Shown piece by piece: positions 1 to 63,221 of a DNA stretch of 64,000 nucleotides. Position numbers and translations under genes: made by a program. The first letter of the stretch is position 1; the number at the start of each line of letters is the position of its first letter. Origin of the DNA: Spartobacteria bacterium (GTDB lineage Bacteria; Verrucomicrobiota; Kiritimatiellia; RZYC01); assembly GCA_009930475.1 (NCBI GenBank), contig RZYC01000002.1:1121-65120 (forward strand), written 5' to 3'. The notes beneath the pieces are model-generated. The model was not told the origin of the DNA, searched no databases, and saw only the letters and a program-made list of their open reading frames with translations.

Positions 1-1737
1 ACCCAGGGTGCTCATGGTTCCAAAGAGAGCAATCCCGAAGACCGCACCGATCCCTAAGTAGGTGGTATTAAAAGCCTCCTCAAAGATAGAATATTCCCCC
101 ATGGTGGACGTGAACATAATACAGGCATTTTCCGCCTGCAATTTCCACATCTGTTCGGCAAAGGGATAGACTGCTGACGGGACTTCATTCAGTCCCCAGA
201 TAAAGTTCATAAAGAAGATCGATGCGATCAGAATAATGGGGAACAGCACCACCTGGGTTTTCCAGATACTGGTAAACTTGGTACCGGTCAGTTCGCACTG
301 CTTATAAAACACCACCATCTGGCCGTAATTCGCCATAGGGATGGGCAGGAACCAGCATTTCACCCCGGTATACCCACTGAGGATCAGCGATGCCTCCCGA
401 ATAAAGGGAATTTCCACCACCTGTCCGACCATGCCTTCCAGCCGTGTGGTCACATAACTGAGAATAGGCGTATAGACAAATCCAAGTAAAATCAGCACCA
501 CCATGATGCCCTTATGCCAGTCGATAAGCCAGCCCGACACCAGAATATAGGTAATGGTGACGAGGAAATAGACAAAGACCACAAACCAGGTATTGATATC
601 GCCGCGATCCTTTTTGACATCCATGGGATTCTTCGACCGTTTCTTCGTCGATTTATCCCGATTGCGGAAACTCTGATAGACCTGCCAGAAACCGGCCACG
701 GCCACGGCCACGGCAATCCCTATCTGGAAACTGAAGTAGAAATCGATGTTATTCTTATAGAGCGTAGAGATCGTTCCGTCGCCGGGCGTCCAGTGTTGCA
801 GGATACCGTAATGATAGAGCGTCGGATTCAGCACCATGGTCACGATCAGTCCAACAAAACTGCCCACCATAGCATAGAACGGCAGCACCATACCGAAGAT
901 GATATTCCCGAAATCCCAGGACATCCCTGTGGCCACGGCGCTCAGGTAATCGCCGGTGGTCTGAGTCCAGTCGGAGAACGGAATAGGCAGCACCTGGATG
1001 GTTTCTCCGGTCAGTGCGCCGGACAATGTAGGCAATAGCAGGTAGATAAAGCCGAAGCCCAATCCAATGGCTCCTCCAATGGAAAACACACGCCAGCGCC
1101 AGCGGCCCTCCTCATTTTCAATGGATTTCTCATCGGCATCTTCCGCCAGCGCACAGACACCCTGTGCACCCACTGGGGCCATGGGGAACGGCAGGCGTTC
1201 CACATCATTGGCGACACGAAACAAACCGTATCCCAGAACCGTACTGGCCAACTGACCAAAAAAGGTTCCAAAAATCATCATACCGATGACCGGCAGCCAG
1301 TCGGCATGGAAGAACGTGCGATCACCATAGGACGCCGAATCGGCGGCAGGGGCAAACCAGACCGGCAGCTGATCGGCAATACCGTGGGCAATAGCCGCAT
1401 CACTGCGTGCAAAGAACTGATTCCATATTAATCCGCCGAAAGGCGACCCCATTGCGGCGGCGGCCATAAAGAACAGCACAAAAATCTCGGGTCGTTTCAG
1501 GTTTTTGTGAGCCCGCTTGGCCACCTCAATAAAGAGAATCACCGTCACCCACTGCGAGGCGGCACCAATATTATCCACACCGGCCAGCAGTCCCATATAA
1601 ATGGCGCCCGGCACCATCAGCAGCGCGATAAACAGCGCCCCGACCAATGCCGTCCAGTTAAAGCCATCCTCGAACGTATCGGGGACTTCCATGACCTGCC
1701 GAAACTCTTCCAGTTCTTTATCTACTCTCGTTGCCAT
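1..1737 (-). CDS. Large polytopic membrane protein, family unknown. Partial: the C-terminus runs off the window start; at least 579 aa are visible.
   Basis: The ATG is the complement of 1735-1737 and translates MATRVDKELEEF... The frame is open to nt 1 and is not in the ORF track because there is no stop. Many hydrophobic helices and Gly/Pro-rich loops. The plus-strand ORF 514-1038 is antisense to it and is rejected. Confidence 0.55.
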   Translation of the reverse strand, partial: MATRVDKELEEFRQVMEVPDTFEDGFNWTALVGALFIALLMVPGAIYMGLLAGVDNIGAASQWVTVILFIEVAKRAHKNLKRPEIFVLFFMAAAAMGSPFGGLIWNQFFARSDAAIAHGIADQLPVWFAPAADSASYGDRTFFHADWLPVIGMMIFGTFFGQLASTVLGYGLFRVANDVERLPFPMAPVGAQGVCALAEDADEKSIENEEGRWRWRVFSIGGAIGLGFGFIYLLLPTLSGALTGETIQVLPIPFSDWTQTTGDYLSAVATGMSWDFGNIIFGMVLPFYAMVGSFVGLIVTMVLNPTLYHYGILQHWTPGDGTISTLYKNNIDFYFSFQIGIAVAVAVAGFWQVYQSFRNRDKSTKKRSKNPMDVKKDRGDINTWFVVFVYFLVTITYILVSGWLIDWHKGIMVVLILLGFVYTPILSYVTTRLEGMVGQVVEIPFIREASLILSGYTGVKCWFLPIPMANYGQMVVFYKQCELTGTKFTSIWKTQVVLFPIILIASIFFMNFIWGLNEVPSAVYPFAEQMWKLQAENACIMFTSTMGEYSIFEEAFNTTYLGIGAVFGIALFGTMSTLG

Positions 1738-1761: not shown

Positions 1762-4700
1762 TTATTTAGATACTTTCGTCGACTTCAAATGGACCAGTGT
1801 TTCTGAACGATAATGCTCCATGGTTGCCTGCGGCAAGGAACGCCACAGCAGGAACTGCTGACGCAGATCATTCAACAACACCCGATTCAAACGTGCCCAG
1901 TCTTTCGGCTGGCCGGAAAGTCGTACAATGCGGATATTCACCTCATCGATACCCTCGATTTCGCTCTTAGCTGAGCGCAGGGCAAATTCCTGCGTGACAC
2001 CCAGATCGAAGGGAGCCAGAGCCAGCGTGGCCGACATGCCCAAGGCTCCATCCTTATAGACATCAATTTTTGCATTCTTCGACATAAACGATCCCAGTCC
2101 TGTATCGCTGAACTGGTCAAAATGCTCCTTCAGGAAACTCACCACACCGGTCAGGTCATAGGCCGACACCGTGAACGGGAAAATCAGATCAAACTCATCA
2201 TTATCCGGTTTCGGCAGTTTCCAGGAACGCAGGAGGCCGGGATTGGCACTTTTCGAGGCCTTGATAGCGGGATAAATGGCCGAAATCATAACCGTACCCA
2301 TGACAATCAGGATGGTGACAATCGCATTGGTGGAAGAATAATTCATTTCCGGCAGCTGCATCAGACCGTAGTTTGCCGCAATGCTCATCACCTTCATAGA
2401 TCCCTGAGCAATCAGATAGCCGCCCAGACCGCCCAACACACTGTACACCAGTGCTTCGGAGAAAAACAAACTGGCCACATGCGGGGGAGCGAGTCCCAGC
2501 GCACTGAAGGTGTAAATTTCTTTTTCACGGTCAGCCACAGAGCCCAGCATGGTGCCAAAAATCACCAGCCCGCCCAACAGAATCGGAAAAAATAAATCGG
2601 CGATACCACTGGCGGCAACAATCGTTCCCTGAATGTGGCGATACACCCCGTCGCGGCGCGTCCCCACAATGGGCGTTTTATCCATCATGCGCGCCATATC
2701 TTCGGCTATCGTGGTCGACTGCTGTGAATCTTCGGTATAAAGCGTAATAATATGAGGTTTTCCGCCCAAGCGACGCGCATTGCGCTCAGAGGTAATCACA
2801 ATCGAGTCAATGGGAAGGCTGGCCCAGGAACCCTGATCCGCCATGATATCATCCATGGATGACGTATCGCTCGATCCCGACTGCTTCATCTGCGCAAAAT
2901 CCACAGGAAGAATACTGCTTCCATCCATATCACGGGCGGCCGACAGCGATGAGGCACTCACAAATTCACCCACGCGCAACCGCAATCCCTTAAGAATCAC
3001 TTCCGCCCCCGGCTGCACATCCAGCAGATCCCCTACCGCATCGGTCATAAAGACCATGTCCTCGACATCTTCGGGATTTTCCAGCTTCAGCAGTTCCCGC
3101 AAATCTTCACGCTGCGAGAGTTCCGCTGCGGATAACCCGAGAATACCCTTCAAAATTACCGGATGAGTCGCATCGGAATGCGCCACTGCAAAATCCGGAT
3201 CAGAAGGAAATTCCGGACAGAGCCAGTAGCGATAAGACACCACGGAATCATCACTCCAGCGACCATTGATAATATCCAGAAAATCAGGATTAAAGGAGGT
3301 CCAGTTAGGCTGATGCAGTTCCACGCCCGTATAGGCGGGTGCCGGTGCGGTAAAGAGCTTCACAATCCCCTTCTGCGTATCAAAAGACGCAAAACCCAGA
3401 ATGGTAAAGGTCAGCAAAATAATCGTGACAGCCGTCAGCGCGGTACGCAATGGACGGCGGCGCATGGTGGAAATGCCCATATTCATGGCAGCAATCATCG
3501 TATTAATACGCGAAATATCCGACGCATGCACGGAAGTCGACATCCCCTGCATGGCTTTCAGTTCAAACTCGAACTTCTGCATAATAATCACGATCACCAG
3601 CACCGATAATACAACGATGGCGAATCCCAAGAAAATAATCACCGGCGTCTTGGCAATGGCAAAGGCCGGATGGGACATATACAGCACGAGGAACGTCAGG
3701 ACAAAGAAGAAGGTAAACCAGGCCACCTGTTTGTAAATCATGGTCGATCCCACCAGCAACCGTTCCAGTGCAAAGGCAAAAGGGACGCACAGTGCCAGCA
3801 GTACCAGCACCGCCTTCACCAGGTCATCCATGCTCGTGCGGATAATTTCATAGACCGGCTCCGACGACATATAGGCTGCACTGGACAGGGCTTCGGCGCG
3901 TACCGCATTATCGATGGTGGAGGCTTCCTCGATCATATCCTTCACACGGCCATGAGCCGCTTCCAGCGAACTGTTCATGATATCTCTGTCGCGCAGAATA
4001 TTCATGCGGCGTTCATTCAGCCGCCATAAATCACCGGCGGACCGCCTGGCATTGAGCAGCGAAAGCCAGTCGGTGGTCACCGGATAGCCTACGCCGTAAT
4101 TATCGTCCCTGCTCGTACCCACACTGGCCGGATCATTCACCAGCGCAACAATGGATCGCAAAGCAAAGGCTTTATAGCCCTTAATGGTGGAATCGGCGTA
4201 CCAATAGACCAATCCGTCCGTGGTTTCACAATAAGAACGTTCCGAACTTCCATCGGACAAAATGGCATTGGAGCGGGCATCCAGCAACTTCGCAGGTTTT
4301 GGCCAATATCCCGGAGGAAGCATCAGCACACCGCTTTCGCAGGGAAAGGTATTCAGCCGTTTCATCGCCGTGCTACGCGTGGTCATATCCGAGGCCATAG
4401 CCACCTGACCCCGCTCATCCAGTTTTGCGGCAAAGCCCACGGGTTTGGGATATTCCGATGGCAGGGCACCGGCCTCATAGGCGCCATTCTGATCGGTCAG
4501 CAAGACCCAGTAGGGTTCAAAAGCATAGGGCTTGGTATGATACCAGAAACAGGCATTCCAAGGCGTCCGCAAGCTGAGCTGCACAACAGCTCCGGCCTGA
4601 GCCGTATTGGGAATGGAGCTGCCGCGCTGGCGACCCATAACAATAGCACCGGTGGTACGCCCATTATCAAATCCCGGTACAATATACGTGGCATCCACGG

Positions 4701-6561
4701 GCATGGAGCGGCGCAGGGAAAGGCCTTCCTGATCGGCGATGGCCTCGGGTTCCGTCAGCTTCGAATCCTGACTGCCCACGGCAGTGAGAATGTGACCGAT
4801 TTCGTCCACATTGTTTTCCATCATGGTCAAATCATACTGATCTACGCGATCATCGGGCGTGCCTTCCAGCTCCAGCCGTTCAAAGACCGTACCCAGCACG
4901 ACATTATAAATGCCGTACCGTCCCGCCACTTCCCCGCCATGAATGAGATAGGGAGAAGCCCAGAGCAGACGGGGATTTCTAACCTTGCCGTCGATGGACG
5001 AAATTTCAAAATGTTCAGGACGCCCGCCCGTTTTTTCCAGCGACTGATAGGCCCGCATAAAACTGGACTGAACCTTCCCGTATAAGCCGGGACGATCCCG
5101 CTCGGCGTGCATTTCCGAATCGCCACCCACAATCAGACCCCAGCGATCGGTGCTCTGTCCCAGCATCAACGTGGAATGCAACGTAATCCACTTGTCTTTC
5201 ATCAGCATCTGCAGCGCTTCTGAACCGGCAAGAACAGCACTCAGCTGTGTCAGTTCCTTTTTACGGGCGGCCACGCTGTCGCGCAGCATCGACATGATAG
5301 CAAGAAAGTTAGGATCCTTCAGATTCTTAACATCTTTTCTACCCAGCTGTTTGCGCAGGGCATTCCACGCCTGATACTCCTTATCCAGATCGGCCACCCG
5401 TTTGGTTGCCACGGAACGGTCGCCATCTTTGGGAATAACAGCAAGGGCTTTTCTGGCATCGGCTAAATCGGCACGCACGGCATAGGACAAATCCTGAGCA
5501 TAATTACGTAAACGAAAAAGTAAATCACGCCCTTCGTCGCTGATGGTATCATCCAGCGGATTGGCCTCATTCATTTGCGCTTCTAATTTAGCAATGAAGG
5601 CGTCCTCTTCCTTGGCGGCCTTCAGACGATCGGCAATGGTTGCGCGGTTACCCTCGCCGTCCAGTGCCCAATAAAAATTAATGGTGCCGGAAAAATTGCG
5701 GGCTTCTCCGTCAAAAAAGGCAATGAGGATATGACGACGGGGACGGTTTTCCTTGATATATTCCGCCAGTTTCAGCAGACCCGCGCAATTGATCGCGGCC
5801 CGCCCGCCCGGCGATCGACGCGGCACTTCACCAAAGGAGTCATAGGGCGCGGCCAGAATAATCACCTCTTCTTTTTCTAAGTCAAAAACCGGATCGGTGC
5901 CCTTGAAAAAGGCCAGCACATTATGACCTGTCTCGCGTTTCCATTGAATGGCGCTCCTGATGGTGACCTGTGTCCCGTCAGGCAGTGCATCGCGGGAGCC
6001 GTCATAATAAAACCGGGGGAGATTGGCGTTGGCGCGGACATAATGGAAATTGCTGGCATCGGCCTTTTCACTTGAGACAAATACAACCGCTTTGGCACCC
6101 AGACGAAAGGCCCGCTGCCAATGGGTTCCGGCATTGTACTCCATAACCGCAATTTTATCGTGGGGATTGGCATTCTTAAAATCAGCATCGGTGCCATGCC
6201 CCACGTAGATCAGTTCGCCGGTCACACCTGCTTCATCTGTTACCGGAGGAATGACTACATTGGGACGCATGGGCACCAAATTGATTTTCTGGCCGTCCGG
6301 TAGCAGCATTTCGCATTCGATGACCTGGGTCTGTGCCACCGAAAAATCCTGGGTCAACAGCTCATCAGGAGCCATTTCCTCCAGACGTTTCGTAATGTAC
6401 GCGGCCGCCGCACTTCCATTCGCTGTACCAACAAGGCGATGGGGATATTTCCCGATTTCCCGGCTGTCCCGCTCAAAATCGGCCGTGACTCCATAAGACA
6501 GGGAGCATAACACCGAGGCGAGAAATGCTGTCACGCACCATTTTAAATACCGTCCATTCAT
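1762..6561 (-). CDS. Giant (1,599 aa) double-FtsX/MacB-type ABC permease with an N-terminal signal peptide, a PA domain, a catalytically degenerate M28 peptidase-like ectodomain, a coiled-coil region and a C-terminal cytoplasmic domain
   Basis: FtsX-like TM blocks: MRRRPLRTALTAVTIILLTF..., and a C-terminal ...GTMLGSVADREKEIYTFSALGLAPPHVASLFFSEALVYSVLGGLGGYLIA. N-terminal PA-like segment: KIAVMEYNAGTHWQRAFRLGAKAVVFV. M28-like motifs have their metal ligands replaced: PYDS for HxDS, GGRAAINCAG for GAxDDxSG, FFDGEAR for FxxEE. Confidence 0.6.
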   Translation of the reverse strand: MNGRYLKWCVTAFLASVLCSLSYGVTADFERDSREIGKYPHRLVGTANGSAAAAYITKRLEEMAPDELLTQDFSVAQTQVIECEMLLPDGQKINLVPMRPNVVIPPVTDEAGVTGELIYVGHGTDADFKNANPHDKIAVMEYNAGTHWQRAFRLGAKAVVFVSSEKADASNFHYVRANANLPRFYYDGSRDALPDGTQVTIRSAIQWKRETGHNVLAFFKGTDPVFDLEKEEVIILAAPYDSFGEVPRRSPGGRAAINCAGLLKLAEYIKENRPRRHILIAFFDGEARNFSGTINFYWALDGEGNRATIADRLKAAKEEDAFIAKLEAQMNEANPLDDTISDEGRDLLFRLRNYAQDLSYAVRADLADARKALAVIPKDGDRSVATKRVADLDKEYQAWNALRKQLGRKDVKNLKDPNFLAIMSMLRDSVAARKKELTQLSAVLAGSEALQMLMKDKWITLHSTLMLGQSTDRWGLIVGGDSEMHAERDRPGLYGKVQSSFMRAYQSLEKTGGRPEHFEISSIDGKVRNPRLLWASPYLIHGGEVAGRYGIYNVVLGTVFERLELEGTPDDRVDQYDLTMMENNVDEIGHILTAVGSQDSKLTEPEAIADQEGLSLRRSMPVDATYIVPGFDNGRTTGAIVMGRQRGSSIPNTAQAGAVVQLSLRTPWNACFWYHTKPYAFEPYWVLLTDQNGAYEAGALPSEYPKPVGFAAKLDERGQVAMASDMTTRSTAMKRLNTFPCESGVLMLPPGYWPKPAKLLDARSNAILSDGSSERSYCETTDGLVYWYADSTIKGYKAFALRSIVALVNDPASVGTSRDDNYGVGYPVTTDWLSLLNARRSAGDLWRLNERRMNILRDRDIMNSSLEAAHGRVKDMIEEASTIDNAVRAEALSSAAYMSSEPVYEIIRTSMDDLVKAVLVLLALCVPFAFALERLLVGSTMIYKQVAWFTFFFVLTFLVLYMSHPAFAIAKTPVIIFLGFAIVVLSVLVIVIIMQKFEFELKAMQGMSTSVHASDISRINTMIAAMNMGISTMRRRPLRTALTAVTIILLTFTILGFASFDTQKGIVKLFTAPAPAYTGVELHQPNWTSFNPDFLDIINGRWSDDSVVSYRYWLCPEFPSDPDFAVAHSDATHPVILKGILGLSAAELSQREDLRELLKLENPEDVEDMVFMTDAVGDLLDVQPGAEVILKGLRLRVGEFVSASSLSAARDMDGSSILPVDFAQMKQSGSSDTSSMDDIMADQGSWASLPIDSIVITSERNARRLGGKPHIITLYTEDSQQSTTIAEDMARMMDKTPIVGTRRDGVYRHIQGTIVAASGIADLFFPILLGGLVIFGTMLGSVADREKEIYTFSALGLAPPHVASLFFSEALVYSVLGGLGGYLIAQGSMKVMSIAANYGLMQLPEMNYSSTNAIVTILIVMGTVMISAIYPAIKASKSANPGLLRSWKLPKPDNDEFDLIFPFTVSAYDLTGVVSFLKEHFDQFSDTGLGSFMSKNAKIDVYKDGALGMSATLALAPFDLGVTQEFALRSAKSEIEGIDEVNIRIVRLSGQPKDWARLNRVLLNDLRQQFLLWRSLPQATMEHYRSETLVHLKSTKVSK

Positions 6562-6576: not shown

Positions 6577-7464
6577 CTATTCAATACTGCCAAGTTCAAC
6601 TTCGACTTCATCGCGTTTTGCGATGCGTTCAATCTGTCCGTCGCGAATCCATAAAAGTCTATCGCACACATTCATCATGCGATGATCATGCGTGGCGCAA
6701 ATGATGGTGACCCCCTTCTCTTTATTCAGCTTCTGGAGAATATCTAGAATCTCCTGCCCCGTATGCTGATCCAGGTTGGCGGTGGGTTCATCACATAATA
6801 AAATGCCGGGCTGATTCGCCAGCGAACGGGCAATGGCCACACGCTGTTGCTGCCCGCCGGACATTTCGATAGGTTTATGAAACCAGCGCTGTTTCAATCC
6901 CACCAGATCCAGTAAATCCATGCCTCTGTTACGCGCCACATCGGGTTCCACACCGCCAAAAGCCATGGGTGTGGTCACATTTTCCAGTGCGGTCATATAT
7001 TGAATCAAATTGTACTGCTGGAAAATATACCCGATTTTCCGGCAACGCAGAAAAGCCAGTTCTTCCGCCGTCAGCTGAGCGACATCCACCTCATCGATAA
7101 AAACGCGGCCTTCACTGGGACTGTCCAGCGCACCAATCATATTAAAGAAGGTGCTTTTACCCGATCCCGACGGACCCATCACCACAATAAATTCTCCGGT
7201 ATAGATTTCCATATCTACCCCGCGCAGCGCATGAGTGACTTCCCCGCCTCGATTATAAATCTTTTTCATCCCGATGGATCGGATGATAACGCGAGAGGAG
7301 GCGCCCGCTGCCGGTTTCGCGTCCTCTGCCTGGGTCAGCGCCTCCGACACCGATTCTTCTTTAACGACAGGCTTTTCGCTGTCGCACTCCCTGTTCGATG
7401 TCATGTCTGCCTTTGCCGGCTTATTTTTTTTCTGAGTCTTTTTATTTTTCGCCATTTGAATCAC
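6577..7464 (-). CDS. ABC transporter ATP-binding protein of the MacB/LolD type, with a roughly 70-aa Lys/Glu-rich N-terminal extension
   Basis: Walker A GPSGSGKST, signature LSGGQQQRVAIARSL, Walker B ILLCDEPTANLD, H-loop ATHD. It lies 8 nt from the upstream FtsX gene. Confidence 0.85.
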   Translation of the reverse strand: MIQMAKNKKTQKKNKPAKADMTSNRECDSEKPVVKEESVSEALTQAEDAKPAAGASSRVIIRSIGMKKIYNRGGEVTHALRGVDMEIYTGEFIVVMGPSGSGKSTFFNMIGALDSPSEGRVFIDEVDVAQLTAEELAFLRCRKIGYIFQQYNLIQYMTALENVTTPMAFGGVEPDVARNRGMDLLDLVGLKQRWFHKPIEMSGGQQQRVAIARSLANQPGILLCDEPTANLDQHTGQEILDILQKLNKEKGVTIICATHDHRMMNVCDRLLWIRDGQIERIAKRDEVEVELGSIE

Positions 7465-7472
7465 CCTGAAAA

Positions 7473-8942
7473 TTATTCGATTCGCATCGCTTCCATCGGA
7501 GCCAGTCGCGCGGCTCTCATGGACGGATACACCGCCGACACCGCCGCCAGAACAATGCCCAGCAGCACAGATATCACACCTGAAATCAATAAGGACTCAA
7601 CCGGAATAGATTGAAACATAAGAGATTTAAATTCAAAGGCCATGCGGGACATCCCGATGATCAGGCCAATTAGCGAACCGAGCAATCCGCCCATAAGACC
7701 CAAAATCGAGGATTCAATAAGAAACACCAGCATGATAAATCCATCCAGTGCACCAAGACACTTGAGCGTAGCAATTTCGCGAAAACGTTCGGTCACCGAC
7801 ATCAGCATGGCGTTGGCAATTCCCACCGCACAAACCAGCATAGAGACAAACAGCAGCCAGCTCATCCGTTTCCCCATACCGAGGAATCCGGTGCCGGAAT
7901 CGGCGGTGGCCAATTCGGCGCGCACCAGCAGCCGCTGCTTTTTGACTCCTTCCGCCAGCGTCACCAAACGTGAGGCGCTCATCTCGGAAATGGTCACACC
8001 GGCGGCCTGCATGGCGTTCATATACCATTGGGCATGCTCTTTGGATAGAAGCAGCTTCCAGATCATTTCCACCTTTACGTCGGCGGGAAGAATGTTTTCT
8101 TTGGCGGCAATATCGCGGCGCAATGAAATATTATTGATGGTATCTTCAATAATGTGACGGTCAATCATCGCCTGCGCCTGCGAGGCCAGTGTGACCGACT
8201 CGGCCTGAGGCAGATAAAAACCCGACTGACGAATCACGTCGCCGAATGCACCGTCCGCCTGCGTTAACGCCGCCAGCATCAATTGTCCGTCCAGCTGACT
8301 CTGCACCTTTTTCAATACCAGCTGCTGGCTCTTGCGGATTTGTTTACAAAACGCATCCAGTGCCGTCCATGACGTCAAATACGGCACCAGCGCCTGAGGA
8401 TCGCCGGGAAATTCAACGGTTTTCAATTTAGCCAGATGGTCGTAAAAAGAGGCGCGATGGGTCTCATCCGCGAGATAATCGAAGATGTAGGAGCCCTCGG
8501 AACGACCTGCCAGCAACCGGCGCTTCCCGTAATCCAGCGCGTCAAAGAAATCGAGATACCCACTGGCCTGCACGGCCAGTTCGTGCATTTCCTGAGGATT
8601 GGCGTCACTACCGCTAAACTGCATCATTTCTGCAAAGACATCGGAATCTGCGGCGTTTTCCGACAAAATTTCTATGATTTCATCGCGTGATTGCGGCACC
8701 GACAGCTTGGCAATCCACTGATCCGACAAATGCATCGCATGAATCTCGTCGCGCGCGGTTTCCGCCACGGCCCGTTTGATCATGCTCTCTGATAAAATAT
8801 TCATCAGGAAAGACATCGCCACGGTGATCACCACCACGGTAACCATAGCACGAAAAAGACGGTATTTGACACCGGCCAGCGCAATGCTCACGGTTCGGCT
8901 AAGACTAAGGATGGGTTGGTCTTTTACATCAATTGTTTTCAT
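7473..8942 (-). CDS. FtsX-like ABC permease (489 aa)
   Basis: C-terminal FtsX block: ...MSVTERFREIATLKCLGALDGFIMLVFLIESSILGLMGGLLGSLIGL... It is adjacent to the ABC ATPase. Confidence 0.75.
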   Translation of the reverse strand: MKTIDVKDQPILSLSRTVSIALAGVKYRLFRAMVTVVVITVAMSFLMNILSESMIKRAVAETARDEIHAMHLSDQWIAKLSVPQSRDEIIEILSENAADSDVFAEMMQFSGSDANPQEMHELAVQASGYLDFFDALDYGKRRLLAGRSEGSYIFDYLADETHRASFYDHLAKLKTVEFPGDPQALVPYLTSWTALDAFCKQIRKSQQLVLKKVQSQLDGQLMLAALTQADGAFGDVIRQSGFYLPQAESVTLASQAQAMIDRHIIEDTINNISLRRDIAAKENILPADVKVEMIWKLLLSKEHAQWYMNAMQAAGVTISEMSASRLVTLAEGVKKQRLLVRAELATADSGTGFLGMGKRMSWLLFVSMLVCAVGIANAMLMSVTERFREIATLKCLGALDGFIMLVFLIESSILGLMGGLLGSLIGLIIGMSRMAFEFKSLMFQSIPVESLLISGVISVLLGIVLAAVSAVYPSMRAARLAPMEAMRIE

Positions 8943-8954
8943 ATCAATAAGCCC

Positions 8955-11057
8955 TTAGGATGGCATAATAATAAACGGCTTCGGCTGATCACCGGTAATC
9001 AAATAGTAAATCGCACTGATGATCATGGGCAGAACCCCGCCCAGCATCTCGCCTGCAATCAACCCGAACATCAAAGGCTTCAATTTCTGATAGAATCCGG
9101 CTCCGCCATACTTGGTCACCGCCATTTTAATCAGCCATCCAATCAGGAAGGACTGGGCAAAACACTTACCGGAATAGGTCGACCACACTAGGAACATAAC
9201 CGGATGGAAAGGCCACTTGGTAAAACGCAGACGCAGTGCAGAGAAGAGCAGCACACAGCCCGCAGCCACGCCAAAAACAATCATACCCTGTTTGTGGGGC
9301 TGAGCACCGGTATAACGAGCCAGCCCCGTTGCCGTTCCGGCGTCCTGCAGCTGGCCCTGTGCTTCGAGGCGCTGCATGTTGGCAATGGTTTCATTGAAAG
9401 GATTCTGCGACTGCTGATTCTGCCATGCCGACAAGTCAATGCCGCGATTATACTGGAAATAAAGCGTCACCGGAATCCCCACACCCAGTCCGACCACCAG
9501 TGCCAAAACAATCATGGCGGCGGAACGGCCGACTTTCACCTTGGTATCGTCAGCCAGTTTCAGGGCATTAACCACAAAAGGCATCAGGGCTTCGCGCGGG
9601 TCGTAAAACAATATGAGACAGAACATGAACATGGTCAGAATGGCCGCCGGCCCCAGTGCTTTCGGCCCCAGCACCGCCAGAATAATCGTTGCCGGCGTGC
9701 CGGCGGTCACAATAAAGAAGACGCCGGTTTCCGCGATCATTCGGCCCATTACCAGATACACCGCCATGGTACACAGACCGAACAGCACCGCAATAGACCA
9801 GGGAAGCCCCGCATAATAGGTGCTGTAAAAGGTAAACAGAATCAGGGAAAGGACAAACAGCCGGGCACCCCAGATCGAGGTCGGCGCAATCTTTTCTTTT
9901 CCGCCCATGCCAAAGGATTTGCGGAAGACCGCCAGATAGTAATAGCGACCGGTATACAACAGCACCAGCAACATGGCGAAATACGCGCCCATATTGAACA
10001 TGTTTTCACGATTGATGCCGAAGGGCCACTGTCCCTGCCACCCGGAATTGGCCACCCCGTACATGGACAGCATACCCGTCAAAGTAATCCATATAAAGGG
10101 TCCGATACCCATGGAAAACGATACGTCCGTGGGCAGGAAAAAGGCGATGGCGATCACTGTGAAGAAAATCGAATAGTACCCGGAAAGGAAGCCGACGCCC
10201 CCGCCCTGTTTAAAGGCTGGAAACAATTCACCCAGCGAACTGAAGTCCACGCCGCTGGGAATCGCCCCCATCAGATAGGATGGGAACCAGACATTGAGGT
10301 AGTTGTAGACATAAATACCGAAGACAATAAACATCGCGACCCAGAAAGAACGATCTTTGAAAACCGGGCTCTCACTGCCGTCCTCATTAGGCAGCAGCGA
10401 CTTGGTAAAAGTCACCAGCGGATAGGGTAAATGCTCGTGATCCACCCATTGCTTGTGCACCACCAGCGATAGACCGAGCAGGCCGAGCCATAGCGATAAA
10501 ATAATCGGCAGCCAGAATTTCATACTGGGCAGCCATGCCTTCCAGGGGATTTCCGAGAAGGCCACACTCTTGTTACCCTCGCCCAGTCCGCGAATAAATC
10601 CGTTCAGCACCGTATCTTCATTCTGCGGGGTCACCTCAGCCAGCATCCCGTCGGGGACCATCTCCATGACGTTCTGCTTTTCCCAGCCCGGTTCGGTTTT
10701 TTCAAAACGATGCGGCATAATCAGCGACGGCGTAAACAGTCGCAGCAGATTGGCTCCGGGAATGGCACAGGCAGGTAGCATGATCACCAGAATCGTCGCA
10801 ATTTCCGCGCGGGTCAGACAGAATCTTCTCCCGAATTTACGTAGCAGCGGATACAGCAGAATCATAAATAAAACCAGCGCCCCATAAATGGATATCGGCA
10901 TATTATTACCGATAAACATCGTCTGGCGCATGATACTATCATTAAAGTAGGTATAACTGGTGACAAATGCCACGCCAAGCAACCCAATCAACACAGCCCT
11001 GATTGACACGAATACAACCTCACTCACATACGATTTATCACCACTCTGCAAACACAC
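8955..11057 (-). CDS. Polytopic integral membrane protein (700 aa), family unknown
   Basis: Hydrophobic helices throughout; no recognisable catalytic motif. It lies 11 nt downstream of the PqqD-like gene and 12 nt upstream of the FtsX gene. The antisense ORF 9204-10430 is rejected. Confidence 0.55.
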   Translation of the reverse strand: MCLQSGDKSYVSEVVFVSIRAVLIGLLGVAFVTSYTYFNDSIMRQTMFIGNNMPISIYGALVLFMILLYPLLRKFGRRFCLTRAEIATILVIMLPACAIPGANLLRLFTPSLIMPHRFEKTEPGWEKQNVMEMVPDGMLAEVTPQNEDTVLNGFIRGLGEGNKSVAFSEIPWKAWLPSMKFWLPIILSLWLGLLGLSLVVHKQWVDHEHLPYPLVTFTKSLLPNEDGSESPVFKDRSFWVAMFIVFGIYVYNYLNVWFPSYLMGAIPSGVDFSSLGELFPAFKQGGGVGFLSGYYSIFFTVIAIAFFLPTDVSFSMGIGPFIWITLTGMLSMYGVANSGWQGQWPFGINRENMFNMGAYFAMLLVLLYTGRYYYLAVFRKSFGMGGKEKIAPTSIWGARLFVLSLILFTFYSTYYAGLPWSIAVLFGLCTMAVYLVMGRMIAETGVFFIVTAGTPATIILAVLGPKALGPAAILTMFMFCLILFYDPREALMPFVVNALKLADDTKVKVGRSAAMIVLALVVGLGVGIPVTLYFQYNRGIDLSAWQNQQSQNPFNETIANMQRLEAQGQLQDAGTATGLARYTGAQPHKQGMIVFGVAAGCVLLFSALRLRFTKWPFHPVMFLVWSTYSGKCFAQSFLIGWLIKMAVTKYGGAGFYQKLKPLMFGLIAGEMLGGVLPMIISAIYYLITGDQPKPFIIMPS

Positions 11058-11068
11058 ACCGACCCGTC

Positions 11069-11464
11069 TTAAATGATCTGAACGGCCAGTGCACCTTTTT
11101 TTACTAAAACGCTAATATAGTTTATAACGGAGATGCGTGCCTCATGGAAAGTAATAAAATACTTTTTCGAAAAAGCCTCCACAACCTCTTCTACCATAGG
11201 ACTTTCTGAACACATATCTAAAACCTCCGCGCCCAGTTTATCGATCTCCAGCACCTTTTCATCCGGTAAACGCATAATCCAGCTGATGGGCGGTATACAC
11301 CATTTCGGTTTACGGTTTTTTACCGCAATGTACAACATACCCTCCTCGTCGGGCCCTTCGACCTTGACCGCCACATTACGTATGACACGCGAACGCAGCA
11401 TGGATTCCCAGGAACTGTCCCCGACACGAAAACAGGCATCCGGCTTTTTTTTCTGTTTAGACAT
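11069..11464 (-). CDS. PqqD-like protein (RiPP recognition element fold), stand-alone
   Basis: C-terminal three-helix segment KVLEIDKLGAEVLDMCSESPMVEEVVEAFSKKYFITFHEARISVINYISVLVKKGAL is typical of PqqD/RRE, preceded by beta-strand-like VKVEGPDEEGMLYIAV. Its start codon overlaps the upstream stop (TAATG). Confidence 0.55.
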   Translation of the reverse strand: MSKQKKKPDACFRVGDSSWESMLRSRVIRNVAVKVEGPDEEGMLYIAVKNRKPKWCIPPISWIMRLPDEKVLEIDKLGAEVLDMCSESPMVEEVVEAFSKKYFITFHEARISVINYISVLVKKGALAVQII

Positions 11465-12327
11465 TATTTGATGCCTCCGAAAGGCTGACAGCAGCTCACA
11501 TAATCAAAAGGCGCTTTTTCACACGCCGGCTTTCCCGTCGGGCGCACCACTAAAAAGCGATATATCCGCTGATCCACCGGACAGCGCCAGCACATAGACT
11601 GATAGGTTCCATTAGGATGCGCCAGCCCCTTGCGCACAAAATCCCCCGACATATCCCAGATTTTATGTCCGCCCGCCGTTCGCGTGCTTAATTCGCCGTG
11701 CACACATTGTTTATCCAGCCGGTTTACCGCCCAGTCCTCCAGCGGCACCGTCAACCAGGTGTCCACCATACCCAGGCGTTCGATCTGCCAGAAATTGTTT
11801 TTCTTTCCATAGGTATATCGCGCCAGCGCCGGCTGAATCAGGCATTCGGTCATAGGAAAACGACGGGGAACCCGCACATTTAATCCCCAGGCCCGGCGTG
11901 TAATCATCCCCTGCCCGTCTGCCGCATTGAACTGCACACTGAATAAAATGGTATTTTCCAAACGTACATCACGCTGATCCGGCCACAGAAAAACCAGTTC
12001 CACCAAAATCCCGGGCTGCTCCAGATAGATCCCGAACCGGCTGACCATGATGCCGTTCTGCATTCCGCACAGCCCGTGAAATCCAGCCCCGCCTTTCACA
12101 TTGACCGCATCCTTTAATCCGCCCCTATCTGTCAGACGATGCTGATAGTCCGACATCATGCGATCGAAGTCCGGTTCTCCCCCCACTTCTTTCCAGTCGA
12201 CTTCTAAACGAAATCGATAGCGATCCGCAAAGGCACAGCGCCCCGACACATCACTGCGTGAAAATTGCAACATCTCCCATTCATCCGGGATATCCAGCGA
12301 AATCTGATTCCAACACACGTTTTGCAT
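11464..12327 (-). CDS. Hypothetical Cys-rich cytoplasmic protein (287 aa), no recognisable family
   Basis: No TM segments. C-terminal CWRC ... CEKAPFDYVSCC resembles a zinc ribbon. Translationally coupled to the PqqD-like gene. Confidence 0.5.
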   Translation of the reverse strand: MQNVCWNQISLDIPDEWEMLQFSRSDVSGRCAFADRYRFRLEVDWKEVGGEPDFDRMMSDYQHRLTDRGGLKDAVNVKGGAGFHGLCGMQNGIMVSRFGIYLEQPGILVELVFLWPDQRDVRLENTILFSVQFNAADGQGMITRRAWGLNVRVPRRFPMTECLIQPALARYTYGKKNNFWQIERLGMVDTWLTVPLEDWAVNRLDKQCVHGELSTRTAGGHKIWDMSGDFVRKGLAHPNGTYQSMCWRCPVDQRIYRFLVVRPTGKPACEKAPFDYVSCCQPFGGIK

Positions 12328-12385: not shown

Positions 12386-12895
12386 TTATCGCTCAAGAAA
12401 ACGACGGAGCGTGTCGTTTACCGCGCGATGAATGGCGGTACAGGTACGGGTTGCGCCGCTCACCGCATCCACCGCGAGCGGCTGGCCGGATGCGATGTCT
12501 TTTCCCGCAAACCGGTCAAGAAAACCTTCTGATATCACCATGTCAACATAGGGCGGCGTATCACCGCTTTCTACTAAAATAACGCGCACCAGTTTCGTTC
12601 CGGACGGATCGATGTGAAGCATCAGCGATGTGGGACCGCGATAACCGACGGGCGCGGAAACATCTCCGGTTAGAACAACCCATCCGACATGAGGCGCATA
12701 GCCCCAACGGAATGGGTCGGAATGCAGCTCGAGCTCTGTCACTCCCAGCTTTGACGCAGCGATGTCACGCCATTGCGCATCAGAGACGGGGGTCAAGTCA
12801 TCATGACGGCCTTTGGCATAGCCCATCGAACCGGCCAGGCCGGTTACGATGAGAATAATACATATGTACCAACTGTTTTTCATTAGAACGTCCAC
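12386..12895 (-). CDS. Secreted FMN-binding domain protein (FMN_bind; candidate flavinylated extracytoplasmic redox protein)
   Basis: Signal peptide or N-terminal anchor WYICIILIVTGLAG. Hallmark VDAVSGATRTCTAIHRAVNDTL: in FMN_bind proteins the Thr in SGAT is the flavinylation site. Confidence 0.7.
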   Translation of the reverse strand: MDVLMKNSWYICIILIVTGLAGSMGYAKGRHDDLTPVSDAQWRDIAASKLGVTELELHSDPFRWGYAPHVGWVVLTGDVSAPVGYRGPTSLMLHIDPSGTKLVRVILVESGDTPPYVDMVISEGFLDRFAGKDIASGQPLAVDAVSGATRTCTAIHRAVNDTLRRFLER

Positions 12896-13839
12896 ATGGC
12901 AATGCAGTTGACCGTATAATCCGGTGATGCACCCGTGCGCGAAGCATAGGGAACCGTTCCCTGAAGCACGATTTTTCTTTTACTGTAATCGGTGGTCATT
13001 GGGTAGAACTGTATTCCCGCCAATACATTGTGACTGTATGTATACTGCTCCTCCGTCCCGTCCAAAATGGTGTCATCTTTCTGTGTGGACATCCATCCGC
13101 CGGCACCCAGTTTCATTTCAAACCAGCGGCCCAGCGTTTTTTCCACCACCATCTGATAGTTCACCACATCGGGTACGTCCTGACCGGAACGTTTGAACGG
13201 AAATCCCGTGACGCCATCGCTTTCAGCGGCATCGCCCCGCCATTCGTAAATAACGTGAGCGGCATATTCGACAAAATCGTCATGGATTCCACCGTGCAGC
13301 AACGCGCCCAGCTGCGCTTTATTGCATCCGGCAGAAAGTCCGGCGACCAATGCTTCATCATCGTCTACAACCCCATAACCAAAAGCCGCACCCAGGCTGA
13401 CTTTGGTATAATTGAATTCCGATTCCGGATTATGCGAGTCGATGATAAAGTATTTACCCGCCAGCCAAATTTCGGTCAGACCCGATTCGCTGAACGAGGC
13501 CGTTTTACCTGCCAAATTCTTTTTCTCGGTATCCACTGATGCATATTTCAATTCCACACCGATATCGCAGCGCGATGAAAGTCCGTACCCCAGACGCACA
13601 TTACTGCTAATCAATTCTTTTTTGGTCAAACCGGCCCCGTCGTCGATATCAACCATTTCGCCTTTCTGGGCATTCCATTTTTCGGTCATATCCGCATATG
13701 TCACACTCAATCGCGGCCAGATCGTTCCTTTCATAATCCCATTGGGACATCCCAGAATATCTGCCGCCATGGTTGGCACACTCAACGTGGTTACCCCGAT
13801 CGCAGCCACCACGGCCATCATCGTTTTCCTGTTTTTCAT
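12883..13839 (-). CDS. Outer-membrane beta-barrel protein (porin-like), with signal peptide
   Basis: MKNRKTMMAVVAAIGVTTLSVPTMAAD signal. Alternating amphipathic strands. C-terminal aromatic residue ...AMWTF, typical of BAM substrates. Confidence 0.55.
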   Translation of the reverse strand: MKNRKTMMAVVAAIGVTTLSVPTMAADILGCPNGIMKGTIWPRLSVTYADMTEKWNAQKGEMVDIDDGAGLTKKELISSNVRLGYGLSSRCDIGVELKYASVDTEKKNLAGKTASFSESGLTEIWLAGKYFIIDSHNPESEFNYTKVSLGAAFGYGVVDDDEALVAGLSAGCNKAQLGALLHGGIHDDFVEYAAHVIYEWRGDAAESDGVTGFPFKRSGQDVPDVVNYQMVVEKTLGRWFEMKLGAGGWMSTQKDDTILDGTEEQYTYSHNVLAGIQFYPMTTDYSKRKIVLQGTVPYASRTGASPDYTVNCIAMWTF

Positions 13840-13917
13840 TTGTATCCTTTTCTGTTTTTTATTGGTTACTGTTTCAAATATCAGAACGATCTGATATTTG
13901 TGATAAATACCTGCATT

Positions 13918-14082
13918 TTATAAACTTCCAATCATTGGAACTTTTTTTTGGGCGGCATTTTGCATGGGGCAGTGACGACAATGTCCTGTGCAGCCGCTGC
14001 CCCCCTTCGTTTCTTTGTGAAGGAAACGGAAAACGCTCCATCCAGCAACTGCAACGAGTGCGATAATGATCATCATTTCCAT
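13918..14082 (-). CDS. FeoB-associated Cys-rich membrane mini-protein (about 54 aa)
   Basis: MEMMIIIALVAVAGWSVFRFLHKETKGGSGCTGHCRHCP: one TM helix plus a Gly/Cys cluster, as in FeoB-associated Cys-rich proteins. Its start is 3 nt from the feoB stop. The last 9 codons (KKVPMIGSL) are contributed by a REP palindrome. The longer 114-aa ORF-track version is rejected because it overlaps feoB. Confidence 0.55.
   Translation of the reverse strand: MEMMIIIALVAVAGWSVFRFLHKETKGGSGCTGHCRHCPMQNAAQKKVPMIGSL
13921..13948. repeat. REP-like palindrome (cttccaatcattggaac plus T-run)
   Basis: Member of the dispersed GTTCCAATCATTGGAAC hairpin family. Overlaps the 3' end of the FeoC-like mini-gene. Confidence 0.7.
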
Positions 14083-14084
14083 TG

Positions 14085-16163
14085 TCAGACCCCTATTCCG
14101 GCGAGTGAACCGATTTGATAGACAGCGGTCGTGAGAACCCAGGCAAGCAGCGTCAGACCACCCAGCTGGAATAAGGCCCAGCGCCATGAATTGGACTCGC
14201 GTTTCGTTACGGCGATCGTCGCCATGCAGGGCGCACTGATGAGACAAAAGAGCATGATGCAAAATCCGGTCAGCGGATTGTAATGCTTCTGTAGCTGTTC
14301 ACGCAGCGGCTGCGAGGTCTCGTCGCTTTCCCCCACCGAATAGACAATGCCAAGCTGAGCGACAAACACTTCTTTGGCGGCAAACGCTCCGATTAATGCC
14401 GTCCCAATGCGCCAGTCAAATCCCATAGGTTTGATCACCGGCTCCATCACATGCCCGATTCTCCCGGCAAAGGTATGAGCAAGCTGTTGAGATTGTTGCA
14501 ATTCCTCGGACAGTGATGGATCCGGCGTAGATTGTGGAAAAGTCGTCAGTGCCCACAAAAGAATAGAGATTCCCAAAATCAGGGTTCCCGCTTTTTTAAG
14601 GTACAGTTTACTGCGTTCCCACACGTGAATCATGATTCCGCTGAACGTAGGCACACGATAGGGCGGCAGTTCCATCACAAAAGGTTCTGTGGGACCTTGT
14701 AAAACACTGATGCGTAAAATCTTTGCAACCACAACGGCCAGAACGAGTCCGATGATATAAATCAGCCACAGCAGCGGGGCCTGCCATGGTTTGGCAAAGA
14801 AAGCCGGAATAATCAGTGCATAAATGGGCAGACGAGCCCCGCAACTGGACAGGGGAACAACAAACATTGTGGTAAGCCGATCGCGCCGGTTATCCAGCGT
14901 ACGTGTGGCCATAATCGCCGGAACCGAACAACCGAATCCTATGAGCATCGGAATAAAACTTTTGCCATGCAGCCCGATTTTATTCATCAGGCGATCCATA
15001 AGAAAGGCGGCGCGCGCCATATAACCGGTGTCTTCGAGTACGGCAATGGCCAAAAACAACAGCAATATATTGGGAAGGAAAATGAGCACGCCGCCCACGC
15101 CGGCAATAATCCCGTCTGTCACCAGGGAATGAATCAGTTCCATTTGATCCGCCGGCCAGATGCTGTCGACCCATCCCGTCAACGCACCAAATCCCGCATC
15201 AATCCAGTCCATAGGCAACGCACCAAAAGTAAACGTCATATAAAAAACGCAATACATAAGCACGGCGAAAATAGGCAGGCCCAGCACGCGATGTGTGACA
15301 ATATGATCCACGCGATCGGACATGGAAACACGCTGTTCGACGGATGATCGTATGGATTGCTGAATGACCCCGGATATAACCCCGTAGCGCTGCTCTGCAA
15401 TAAGAATATCCGGTTCATCTCCGGTGACATGTATCAGGCGCTCTACTTCCTTGTCCACCACGGCCAGCACAGCCGGAGTCGTCGCGTCCATCATCTCATC
15501 ATCACGTTCCAGCAGTTTCACCGCAGTCCAGCGTATCTGTTCCGGGTTTTTTGAGGAATCCTCCGAAAAGAGCTGCCAACCGATCAGATCCAGACTTTTC
15601 TCAACTTCCTTTCCGTACCGTACATCCAGCGGTGCAGGTCGCGATGATGCCGTCATGACGGCTTCGATCTCCGCAGTCACATCGTCCAGCCCCCGCCCCT
15701 TTGACGCAACCACTGGAATGACTGGAACCCCCAGCAAAACCGCCATTTTCTTCAAATCAATGGCCATTCCGCGCGACTGGGCCACATCCATCATGTTCAA
15801 CACCACAATCAGAGGAACCTTCATCTCCAATAATTGAAAAGTCAGATAAAGGTTGCGTTCAATATTTGATGCATCCACCACGTTGACCACGACGTCCGGC
15901 GTCTGATGCAGCAATTCCTGACGCGCCACCCGCTCTTCCACACTATGAGCCGCCAGACTATAGGTGCCGGGCAGATCGGTGATTTCCATGCGCCATTGAC
16001 CCGACTCACGAACCCCTTCCTTTTTTTCGACGGTAACACCCGGATAATTCCCCACGTGCTGCCGTGAACCGGTCAATCGATTAAATAATGTTGTCTTGCC
16101 GGAATTGGGATTCCCGGCCAATGCAATACGTATCGTCTGCATGTATATCTCACTCCTTGTCAT
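14085..16163 (-). CDS. feoB: Ferrous iron transporter FeoB
   Basis: N-terminal G-domain IALAGNPNSGKTTLFN..., DLPGTYSL, NMMD, then a large polytopic permease domain. The true start may be the internal M at complement 16142. Confidence 0.9.
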   Translation of the reverse strand: MTRSEIYMQTIRIALAGNPNSGKTTLFNRLTGSRQHVGNYPGVTVEKKEGVRESGQWRMEITDLPGTYSLAAHSVEERVARQELLHQTPDVVVNVVDASNIERNLYLTFQLLEMKVPLIVVLNMMDVAQSRGMAIDLKKMAVLLGVPVIPVVASKGRGLDDVTAEIEAVMTASSRPAPLDVRYGKEVEKSLDLIGWQLFSEDSSKNPEQIRWTAVKLLERDDEMMDATTPAVLAVVDKEVERLIHVTGDEPDILIAEQRYGVISGVIQQSIRSSVEQRVSMSDRVDHIVTHRVLGLPIFAVLMYCVFYMTFTFGALPMDWIDAGFGALTGWVDSIWPADQMELIHSLVTDGIIAGVGGVLIFLPNILLLFLAIAVLEDTGYMARAAFLMDRLMNKIGLHGKSFIPMLIGFGCSVPAIMATRTLDNRRDRLTTMFVVPLSSCGARLPIYALIIPAFFAKPWQAPLLWLIYIIGLVLAVVVAKILRISVLQGPTEPFVMELPPYRVPTFSGIMIHVWERSKLYLKKAGTLILGISILLWALTTFPQSTPDPSLSEELQQSQQLAHTFAGRIGHVMEPVIKPMGFDWRIGTALIGAFAAKEVFVAQLGIVYSVGESDETSQPLREQLQKHYNPLTGFCIMLFCLISAPCMATIAVTKRESNSWRWALFQLGGLTLLAWVLTTAVYQIGSLAGIGV

Positions 16164-16209
16164 TAGGACTTCCTAACTTTTGGTATAAAAAAAACACAAT
16201 GAAAAATCC

Positions 16210-16443
16210 CTACGACGGGGCCACCAGAATGCCGTGCGCCATACCGCGTCCAATCGCAAAACGACTTTCCTTCATTTTGATGAGCAGCGGCCCCGGCTGA
16301 CTGCTGATCACCTCCAGAGAACAACCGGGATAAATGCCCAGCGAAGCCAGCCTCGCACAGCGATGATGTCCCCCGTTCACACTGCAAACCGTAAGCGGTG
16401 TACCACTGGGAGCCATAGTCAACGACATGCCGGACTTAATCAT
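16210..16443 (-). CDS. feoA: FeoA
   Basis: 77 aa, SH3-like FeoA pattern ...RLASLGIYPGCSLEVISSQPGPLLIKMKESRFAIGRGMAHGILV. The ORF 16163-16387 in another frame is rejected. Confidence 0.75.
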   Translation of the reverse strand: MIKSGMSLTMAPSGTPLTVCSVNGGHHRCARLASLGIYPGCSLEVISSQPGPLLIKMKESRFAIGRGMAHGILVAPS

Positions 16444-58176: not shown

Positions 58177-58251
58177 GGGCGATTAACTCAGCGGAAGAGT
58201 GCTACCTTCACACGGTAGAAGTCACAGGTTCGAACCCTGTATCGCCCACCA
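58177..58251 (+). tRNA. tRNA-Val (anticodon CAC), CCA encoded
   Basis: Acceptor GGGCGAT/ATCGCCC, D-stem ACTC/GAGT, anticodon stem CTACC/GGTAG, loop TTCACAC, T-stem ACAGG/CCTGT, T-loop TTCGAAC. All stems are Watson-Crick. Confidence 0.85.
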
Positions 58252-63210: not shown

Positions 63211-63221
63211 ACGGTCGTTTT

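Follow-up and report, generated by a model that had tools for sequence, protein, structure and literature searches.

ATP-binding cassette (ABC) systems of type VII pass the motion of an ATPase to periplasmic domains or partner proteins, as three published accounts describe for FtsEX-EnvC, LolCDE, MacAB-TolC and YbbAP-TesA (PMC5985334, PMC7668044, PMC12646458). In the case of EnvC and FtsX, the principle outlined in one of these accounts is that a dead LytM domain together with a coiled coil serves FtsEX (PMC7668044). LolCDE and YbbAP-TesA of E. coli have in common an FtsX-type transmembrane (TM) domain, a Porter/Sabre-like periplasmic domain and a LolD-like ATPase, and in both systems the transporter serves a periplasmic partner, i.e., LolA or the hydrolase TesA. 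Here we describe a locus in which such a partner appears to have been fused to the permease. It lies in a window of 64,000 nucleotides (nt) of a Spartobacteria bacterium (contig RZYC01000002.1, positions 1,121 to 65,120; the window is the whole stretch of DNA that was analysed, and all coordinates below are counted within it), where a giant gene at 1762..6561 on the minus strand codes for a pseudo-aminopeptidase ectodomain fused to one FtsX permease unit in a single protein of 1,599 amino acids (aa). The protein and its operon are a new architecture within the MacB/FtsX mechanotransducer superfamily, and the ectodomain is a non-peptidase homologue of the M28 aminopeptidases that carry a protease-associated (PA) domain. 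Based on this architecture and on the gene neighbourhood, we consider it moderately probable that the giant protein serves as the large subunit in a heteromeric type VII ABC mechanotransducer resembling LolCDE, in which the pseudo-peptidase would bind its ligand and not cleave it.

The open reading frame (ORF) listing and the translation agree on 1,599 codons plus a stop, with an ATG start, and the matching frame of the plus strand over 1762..6561 is stop-rich. The ORF that an earlier reading of this DNA from its letters alone (hereafter the sequence-only reading) had reported at this place is real, and its strand, which that reading did not give, is minus. An identical protein is found in NCBI, deposited under the “Spartobacteria bacterium” metagenome-assembled genome, together with more than 120 full-length homologues of about 1,560-1,950 aa that are 45-61% identical to it. 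These homologues come from Verrucomicrobiota/Kiritimatiellae, Lentisphaeria/Victivallales, Planctomycetota and Sumerlaeia assemblies, and their existing annotations are only “FtsX-like permease family protein,” “M28 family peptidase” or “hypothetical.” When each GTDB species was represented by a single genome, 304 of the 185,579 representatives contained a relative; among 80 loci listed, the sole cultured carrier is Oligosphaera ethanolica DSM 24202, whose locus lies at about 4.21-4.23 Mb of NZ_JAUSVL010000001.1. A phmmer search with aa 1-600 against 1.84 billion representatives returned 148 clusters at an expectation value (E) below 1e-30, nearly all of them 1,500-2,100 aa long, and given this near-uniform length the closest relatives of the ectodomain all share the fused architecture. 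The fusion noted by the sequence-only reading accordingly recurs in other genomes. When the membrane half was used as the query, homologue matches were mostly fragments from the same family. On one 2.96-Mb contig (locus L086, 6894-12010), the place of the giant gene is taken by two overlapping gene calls of 1,047 and 669 aa in an otherwise intact cassette, which may be due to a frameshift or to a gene that is truly divided. A distant variant (L087), 30% identical, comprises 1,005 aa after a 579-aa ORF; its FtsX, ABC, DUF6785, u287-like and PqqD partners are retained but arranged differently. No paper on an FtsX-M28 fusion, on DUF6785/DUF6784 or on the cassette was found in the literature.

The first 27 residues (6481..6561) look like a cleaved Sec-type signal peptide, with probable cleavage after V-T-A. 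Hydropathy peaks at aa 9-27, the structural model is of low confidence there, and in 32 homologues the N-terminal segment lacks sequence conservation, is laid out in n, h and c regions and ends in AxA, as is typical of cleaved Sec signal peptides, in agreement with the sequence-only reading. About 880 residues then lie on the periplasmic side, and the ectodomain that they form consists of a complete PA + M28 aminopeptidase fold with its di-zinc site lost, a coiled-coil insertion, beta-rich domains and a helical stalk. In an AlphaFold2 model of aa 1-935 built from 94 family sequences (predicted local distance difference test, pLDDT, 93.9; predicted template modelling score, pTM, 0.91), the M28 fold begins directly after the signal peptide and the PA domain is an insertion in it. 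The N-terminal part of the fold spans aa 28-109 (6235..6480), as delimited by the model secondary structure and by the alignment of family profile 27-313 with residues 12-295 of the aminopeptidase 2ek8 (E 1e-12). The PA domain occupies aa ~110-205 (5947..6234), and the M28 core with its degenerate motifs follows at aa 206-305 (5647..5946), where it is supported by the Pfam M28 match, by alignment and by column counts. A four-helix coiled-coil insertion at aa 306-456 (5194..5646; model helices 309-330, 342-375, 383-408 and 417-454) then interrupts the fold, the sheet of which resumes at aa 457 and ends at about 595, in a C-terminal part (aa 457-595; 4777..5193) that includes the invariant H462 as well as H541. 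The long coiled coil of the sequence-only reading is therefore present as a helical segment, inside the M28 fold and not after it. Its length varies from 150 to 215 aa in the 94 aligned homologues and is greater in a subgroup of 1,700-1,776 aa, the members of which cover just ~78% of the query. Further ectodomain parts, also anticipated in that reading, are found at aa ~600-830 (4072..4764), where confident beta strands in the model indicate one or more beta-rich periplasmic domains; no specific structural match to this region was extracted, M28 entries filling the fold-search lists. A helical stalk at aa 837-913 (3823..4053; model helices 837-858, 864-882 and 886-934) leads into the membrane.

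The M28 + PA assignment is correct, and the nearest relatives of the ectodomain are ordinary bacterial PA-M28 aminopeptidases, as both the sequence and the structure matches indicate. The Pfam Peptidase_M28 match is marginal and covers, with aa 214-293, no more than positions 1-73 of a 193-position profile; an HMMER alignment links aa 110-306 with the PA + M28 aminopeptidase 2ek8, and the whole-family profile finds by sequence 2ek8 (E 1e-12), YwaD (2e-7) and nicastrin (3.5e-5); with the same profile, neither the transferrin receptor (TfR) nor GCPII was matched at E up to 1. In structure comparisons of the ectodomain model, the Aeromonas aminopeptidase 1rtq scored 24.5 (251 of 291 residues, 2.6 Å) and 2ek8 scored 24.1 (338 residues, PA domain included), followed by PaAP and 3iib (22-23), glutaminyl cyclases (~21.5), TfR1 (21.1), GCPII (18.9) and GPAA1 (16.2). 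The Foldseek order also placed 2ek8 and B. subtilis YwaD at the top, with TfR1 and GCPII after them. An M28 alpha/beta hydrolase-like fold with a PA domain of ~100 residues inside it is hence what family profile, model and fold searches agree on, and the PA-like segment and M28-like domain of the sequence-only reading stand, with the bacterial aminopeptidases ahead of TfR1 and GCPII (PSMA) as structural relatives. The described PA-M28 aminopeptidases (Aneurinibacillus AM-1 2ek8, B. subtilis YwaD/BSAP 6hc6, P. aeruginosa PaAP 8ac7, and Aeromonas/Vibrio AAP 1rtq) share the alpha/beta M28 fold, carry their PA domain at the same insertion point and are likewise secreted to the periplasm or the exterior. 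The giant family, on the other hand, has lost ligands (the first His is replaced by P/N, the Glu by Ala and the second Asp by Leu, and there is no bridging Asp), bears mostly Q as the general base, and possesses both the 150-215-aa coiled-coil insertion and a covalent tether to a permease.

Active M28 enzymes have five co-catalytic zinc ligands (His, bridging Asp, Glu, Asp, His), a set that the giant family lacks. Across the 94 aligned members, counted column by column in the numbering of the window protein and with motif equivalences to 2ek8 taken from the HMMER alignment, four of the five ligand positions are lost and the last His looks retained. The position of the first His ligand is P239, P239-Y-D241 replacing HxD, and in the family it is occupied by N (47 members), P (19) or H (12). 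GGRAAINCAG stands for GAxDDxSG and contains no acidic residue; throughout the bridging-Asp motif (positions 252-258), an acidic residue is absent in 93 members. The “EE” pair corresponds to E286-A287, with Q-A as the family consensus: the general-base position 286 is Q in 76 members and E in 8, and the ligand Glu position 287 is A in 78, S in 12 and acidic in none. At the position that we equate with the second Asp ligand (D179), the window protein has L465, 84 members have L and 93 have no acidic residue. H541, kept in 93 members, is probably the last His zinc ligand since its motif HSGExAGxxGIYN resembles SDHxxFxxxGIP; a profile of aa 452-600 matched no M28 structure by sequence. The only second ligand found beside H541 is H239, in 12 of the 94, and at most two of the six catalytic positions survive in any one member, which excludes the canonical di-zinc mechanism for the family. 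Judged from these columns, the PA + M28 ectodomain is predicted to be unable to act as a canonical di-zinc peptidase, and residue 286 (E in the window protein) would, without metals, be unable to serve as a canonical general base. The sequence-only reading had every zinc ligand substituted; alignment with active M28 enzymes upholds this for four of them, H541 being the probable survivor. Its reading of PYDS in place of HxDS and of GGRAAINCAG in place of GAxDDxSG is borne out, and its “GE” for EE was off by one, the alignment giving E286-A287. The vestigial active site is strongly conserved, with D241, D284 and H462 invariant and N258, H290, D469, H541 and E544 near-invariant, which suggests a maintained pocket. 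The window protein itself has F290 and Q469 where the family has H290 (90 of 94) and D469 (85 of 94), and its closest relative (P0002) likewise is without H290; we interpret F290 and Q469 as lineage-specific further decay of the vestigial active-site region.

In the membrane half, hydropathy reveals, besides the weak N-terminal segment, seven TM helices at about aa 914-934, 946-966, 975-995, 1040-1060, 1322-1342, 1362-1382 and 1411-1431. The first three (aa 914-995; 3577..3822) are extra helices that are not FtsX-like by sequence according to hydropathy and hhalign. They are followed at aa 996-1060 (3382..3576) by a cytoplasmic amphipathic helix with an RRRP motif and by TM1 of the FtsX unit (hydropathy; helices 139-153 and 156-180 of a model of aa 880-1599); the motif GISTMRRRP is invariant in the family. 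Between TM1 and TM2 lies a large periplasmic domain of the Porter/Sabre type, as in type VII systems: this MacB-type domain of 260 aa (aa ~1061-1319; 2605..3381) was absent from the sequence-only reading. The C-terminal three-helix TM domain of FtsX comes next (aa 1320-1438; 2248..2604), the FtsX match (PF02687, E 8e-12) being limited to aa 1325-1437 and the PDB matches being to 5xu1, MacB and YtrF. The protein ends with a cytoplasmic domain of beta-alpha-beta4-alpha2 topology, KA1/helix-grip-like (aa ~1439-1599; 1765..2247), which is among its most conserved parts and which hydropathy and the model put at ~160 aa, where about 260 had been estimated before. The model of aa 880-1599 has a pLDDT of 74 overall, confident for two domains and low in the helices.

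A second FtsX repeat, implied by the double-FtsX permease of the sequence-only reading, was considered and rejected. Only one Pfam FtsX match is present, the TIGR03434 (ADOP) score is 29.3 bits against a cut-off of 622, and hhalign of the family sub-alignments TM 905-1010 and 1312-1445 gave a probability of 0.1%. Moreover, the first cytoplasmic loop of the extra bundle (~10 residues) is too short for a coupling helix, and the hydrophobic stretch at the N-terminus corresponds to a signal peptide that is not conserved in sequence. Given these negative results, the predicted topology is a periplasmic ectodomain, three anchoring helices, an amphipathic helix and one canonical FtsX unit. The membrane module (aa 872-1482) has relatives elsewhere, since it matches the PADLOC profiles PDLC01991 (“CARF_m8--CARF_LolE_TM,” E 1e-53) and PDLC01990 (“CARF_Beta-galactosidase_LolE_TM,” E 8e-26). 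The proteins behind these profiles have a homologous module of ~600 residues, composed of three TM helices, FtsX TM1, a periplasmic domain and FtsX TM2-4, so that the same three-TM + FtsX module exists with other ectodomains and other cytoplasmic tails. Their ectodomain is missing or beta-galactosidase-like, whereas the giant protein has PA-M28, a different C-terminal domain and no detectable CARF.

The gene neighbourhood was compared in 85 homologous loci, in which ORFs were called and then searched with the window proteins, counts being made within the flanks examined. The dominant order, on a single strand, is u287, PqqD, DUF6785 (movable), the single-unit permease FtsX489, the ATPase ABC1, the giant gene, OPT and a second ATPase, ABC2; in the window, the intergenic gaps are 8-24 nt and all cassette genes lie on the minus strand. 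ABC1 (6577..7464), 15 nt upstream of the giant ORF, is a LolD/MacB-type ATPase (ABC_tran E 3e-31; LolD TIGR02211 E 5e-64; FtsE 8e-60; MacB nucleotide-binding domain 8e-59), a cognate ATPase of the kind that type VII systems employ. ABC1 lies upstream of the giant gene in 66 loci and a second ATPase downstream in 67; the catalytic motifs of ABC1 are intact in 40 of 40 orthologues, and Walker A, signature, Walker B (D-E) and H-loop motifs are preserved in both ATPase families. The listed ABC1 ORF has a GTG start and a Lys-rich N-terminal extension of ~65 residues; as orthologues measure 256-275 aa, the true start is probably an internal ATG. FtsX489 (7473..8942), a 489-aa permease with one FtsX unit (FtsX E 1.5e-15), stands directly upstream in homologous loci, and is 27% identical to the FtsX helices of the giant protein. 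Its periplasmic loop of ~300 residues is mostly alpha-helical by eye, with no MacB_PCD in Pfam, and may be a docking site for the coiled coil of the giant protein.

On the other side of the giant gene, 24 nt downstream, is its most constant neighbour, an OPT-family permease present in 84 of the 85 loci, whose ATG is at 1737 and which runs beyond the left window edge (1..1737). Full-length orthologues of this gene exceed the Pfam OPT gathering score (27.2 and 35.3 vs 25.8), and ABC2 is normally next, outside the window. The upstream part of the cassette holds a polytopic membrane protein with DUF6785 and DUF6784 (8955..11057; Pfam E 3e-80 and 2e-19; 45 loci), the gene of which is placed before u287, after PqqD or after ABC2; hhalign found no significant relation between the OPT-like and DUF6785 families, which share only an (E/H)xLP(F/Y)P motif. 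It also holds a PqqD-like (RRE-type) protein of 131 aa (11069..11464; Pfam PqqD E 5.5e-6; 57 loci) and u287, an orphan cytoplasmic protein of 287 aa (11464..12327; 47 loci) that always precedes the PqqD-like gene, its stop overlapping the start codon of the latter by 1 nt. The motifs of u287 are WE(M/L)LQFS...CAFADRYQFRLEL and AAWICPxDGRLY; no relative was found in Pfam, NCBIfam, PADLOC or PDB, nor with a 13-orthologue profile against PDB and Pfam. Rfam detected no riboswitch in the window, and promoter and terminator scans were at chance level.

In the mechanism that we favour, the FtsX unit of the giant protein would pair with the adjacent FtsX489 as a LolC/LolE-like heterodimer, driven by the two co-conserved, motif-intact ATPases ABC1 and ABC2. 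ATP binding and hydrolysis would shift the stalk helices, and the movement would be passed to the periplasmic domains, where the tethered pseudo-aminopeptidase would act as a binding or hand-off module and not as an enzyme. The most plausible ligand, speculatively, is a peptide or the N-terminus of a protein or lipopeptide, because the aminopeptidase scaffold, the OPT oligopeptide permease and the PqqD/RRE-type domain come from peptide-handling families; traffic might run either toward capture for import or toward extraction and presentation. LolCDE offers the closest parallel in that two different FtsX-type subunits (LolC/LolE) are encoded side by side and the transporter serves a periplasmic partner. 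Unlike in LolCDE and YbbAP-TesA, the partner here is fused and a pseudo-enzyme, and there are three extra TM helices, a cytoplasmic KA1-like domain, two ATPase genes and companion OPT and DUF6785 permeases; NCBIfam scores are also far under the equivalog cut-offs (216 vs 308 for LolD, 55 vs 362 for LolCE). The ATP-driven periplasmic binding device of the sequence-only reading thus keeps its core, as the PA/M28 fold, the MacB/FtsX permease and the LolD/MacB-like ATPase make a non-enzymatic binding module reasonable, and loses its double FtsX and its link to iron. Several points weigh against the mechanotransducer reading. The conserved vestigial site would suit a binding pocket, but an unconventional catalytic site as well; the TM helices in the model of aa 880-1599 have pLDDT values of 45-65, which makes the packing of the three extra helices tentative; the cassette contains no obvious substrate gene; u287 and the DUF6785/6784 components have no explained place in it; and we know of no partnership of OPT transporters with ABC ATPases or FtsX proteins. 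It is possible, although unlikely, that the whole cassette forms a hybrid envelope machine in which the pseudo-aminopeptidase captures peptides, or the N-termini of proteins or lipopeptides, in the periplasm and feeds dedicated OPT and DUF6785 permeases, with the RRE-like protein, u287 and the KA1-like tail receiving or gating the cargo; if so, this would be the first ABC motor coupled to secondary-transporter-type permeases through a dead peptidase.

Other functions can be envisaged for the same set of parts. FtsEX-EnvC likewise combines a type VII mechanotransducer with a dead metallopeptidase domain and a long coiled coil, and the giant protein could follow this logic in cis, its pseudo-metallopeptidase and coiled coil being an ATP-gated allosteric activator or adaptor of a separate periplasmic enzyme such as a cell-wall or envelope hydrolase. 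The coiled coil, at 150-215 aa and more, does vary in length like a spacer arm. However, EnvC is a separate protein of the M23/LytM fold that activates amidases, whereas here the fold is M28 with a PA domain, fused to the permease and without an evident hydrolase partner; the cassette has no conserved gene for a periplasmic hydrolase, the conserved partners of the giant protein being either membrane permeases (OPT, DUF6785) or cytoplasmic proteins, and the presence of the cassette in only 304 of 185,579 species representatives argues against a core division function. We therefore hold an EnvC-like regulator to be improbable, if worth keeping in mind. Somewhat more doubtful is an M28-like domain that would still be an enzyme, with a mono-metal or metal-independent site drawn from D241, D284, H290, H462, D469, H541 and E544. 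The invariance or near-invariance of polar residues close to the former active-site motifs would be accounted for in this way, and mono-zinc glutaminyl cyclases, with the bridging Asp, the ligand Glu and the last His as their ligands, share the M28 fold. Nearly every member nevertheless lacks two of these three ligands, most have Q at the general-base position, and the replacement of H290 and D469 in the window protein is hard to square with a catalytic need.

Two further explanations, prompted by the database matches and by the surroundings of the cassette, are far less credible than these. The strong PADLOC matches of aa 872-1482 could point to a defence-related, CARF-linked membrane effector, CARF_m8 having reportedly been defined by Makarova et al. 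in 2020. The match to PDLC01991 extends over the membrane module only (positions 30-597 of the 810 in the profile), the C-terminal domain searched by itself has no match at E up to 10 and in the model folds as KA1/helix-grip and not as a Rossmann-like CARF, and none of the neighbourhoods inspected contains CRISPR or cyclic-oligonucleotide genes, which makes such an effector very unlikely. The transferrin-receptor analogy of the sequence-only reading, i.e., an iron-regulated device capturing iron or a metallo-ligand, fares worse still and is hardly tenable. Upstream of the cassette, on the minus strand, the window does hold a local iron cluster (12386-17185) with a DtxR-type repressor fused to FeoA (16436-17185), FeoB (14085-16163), an unassigned 318-aa ORF (12883-13839) and an FMN_bind/RnfG-like protein (12386-12895), so that DtxR-FeoA and FeoB lie 2-5 kb upstream, and OPT/YSL-family transporters can carry metal chelates in plants. 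As a conserved context, however, iron was rejected: among the 85 loci, phmmer recovered FeoB in one and the FMN-bind protein and the 318-aa neighbour in none, DtxR-FeoA is a local gene too, and the flanks of homologous loci contain glycoside hydrolases, sulfatases and housekeeping genes. The conserved neighbours, namely the OPT permease and the PqqD/RRE-like protein, point to peptides. In addition, bacterial PA-M28 aminopeptidases are structurally closer than TfR and, compared with it, the only ones matched by sequence; the membrane anchor is at the end opposite to that of TfR, and the helices are an insertion and not a C-terminal dimerisation domain.

A broader likeness to eukaryotic proteins nonetheless exists. 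Nicastrin (gamma-secretase), GPAA1 (GPI transamidase) and TfR1/GCPII are membrane proteins built on an M28 (+PA) scaffold; of these, nicastrin, GPAA1 and TfR1 have no catalytic role and act within membrane complexes as receptors for a substrate or ligand. Their topology and partners differ from those of the giant protein, and none is coupled to an ABC ATPase. As the similarity to these eukaryotic M28 proteins does not exceed that to the bacterial aminopeptidases, it is attributed to convergent fold re-use and not to orthology.

The window also contains a second giant ORF of 1,709 aa (58432-63561, minus strand), with weak fn3, Ig-like and alpha-amylase matches, which is unrelated to the cassette; a tRNA gene (58177-58248, plus strand) lies beside it.

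Type VII ABC systems are known from few paradigms (MacAB, LolCDE, FtsEX and YbbAP), to which the giant family adds a branch with a fused pseudo-enzyme partner. With its re-use of the M28 scaffold, this family provides a bacterial parallel to nicastrin, GPAA1 and TfR. Its strictly conserved operon of 7-8 genes occurs in about 300 species-level lineages, which belong to the little-studied Planctomycetota-Verrucomicrobiota-Chlamydiota (PVC) group, with Victivallales of gut and rumen among them, and to a few other bacteria. Knowledge of its function would widen the repertoire of mechanotransmission, would give a context to DUF6785/6784 and to the new orphan family, and would possibly show how polymer-degrading PVC bacteria handle peptides or envelope components.

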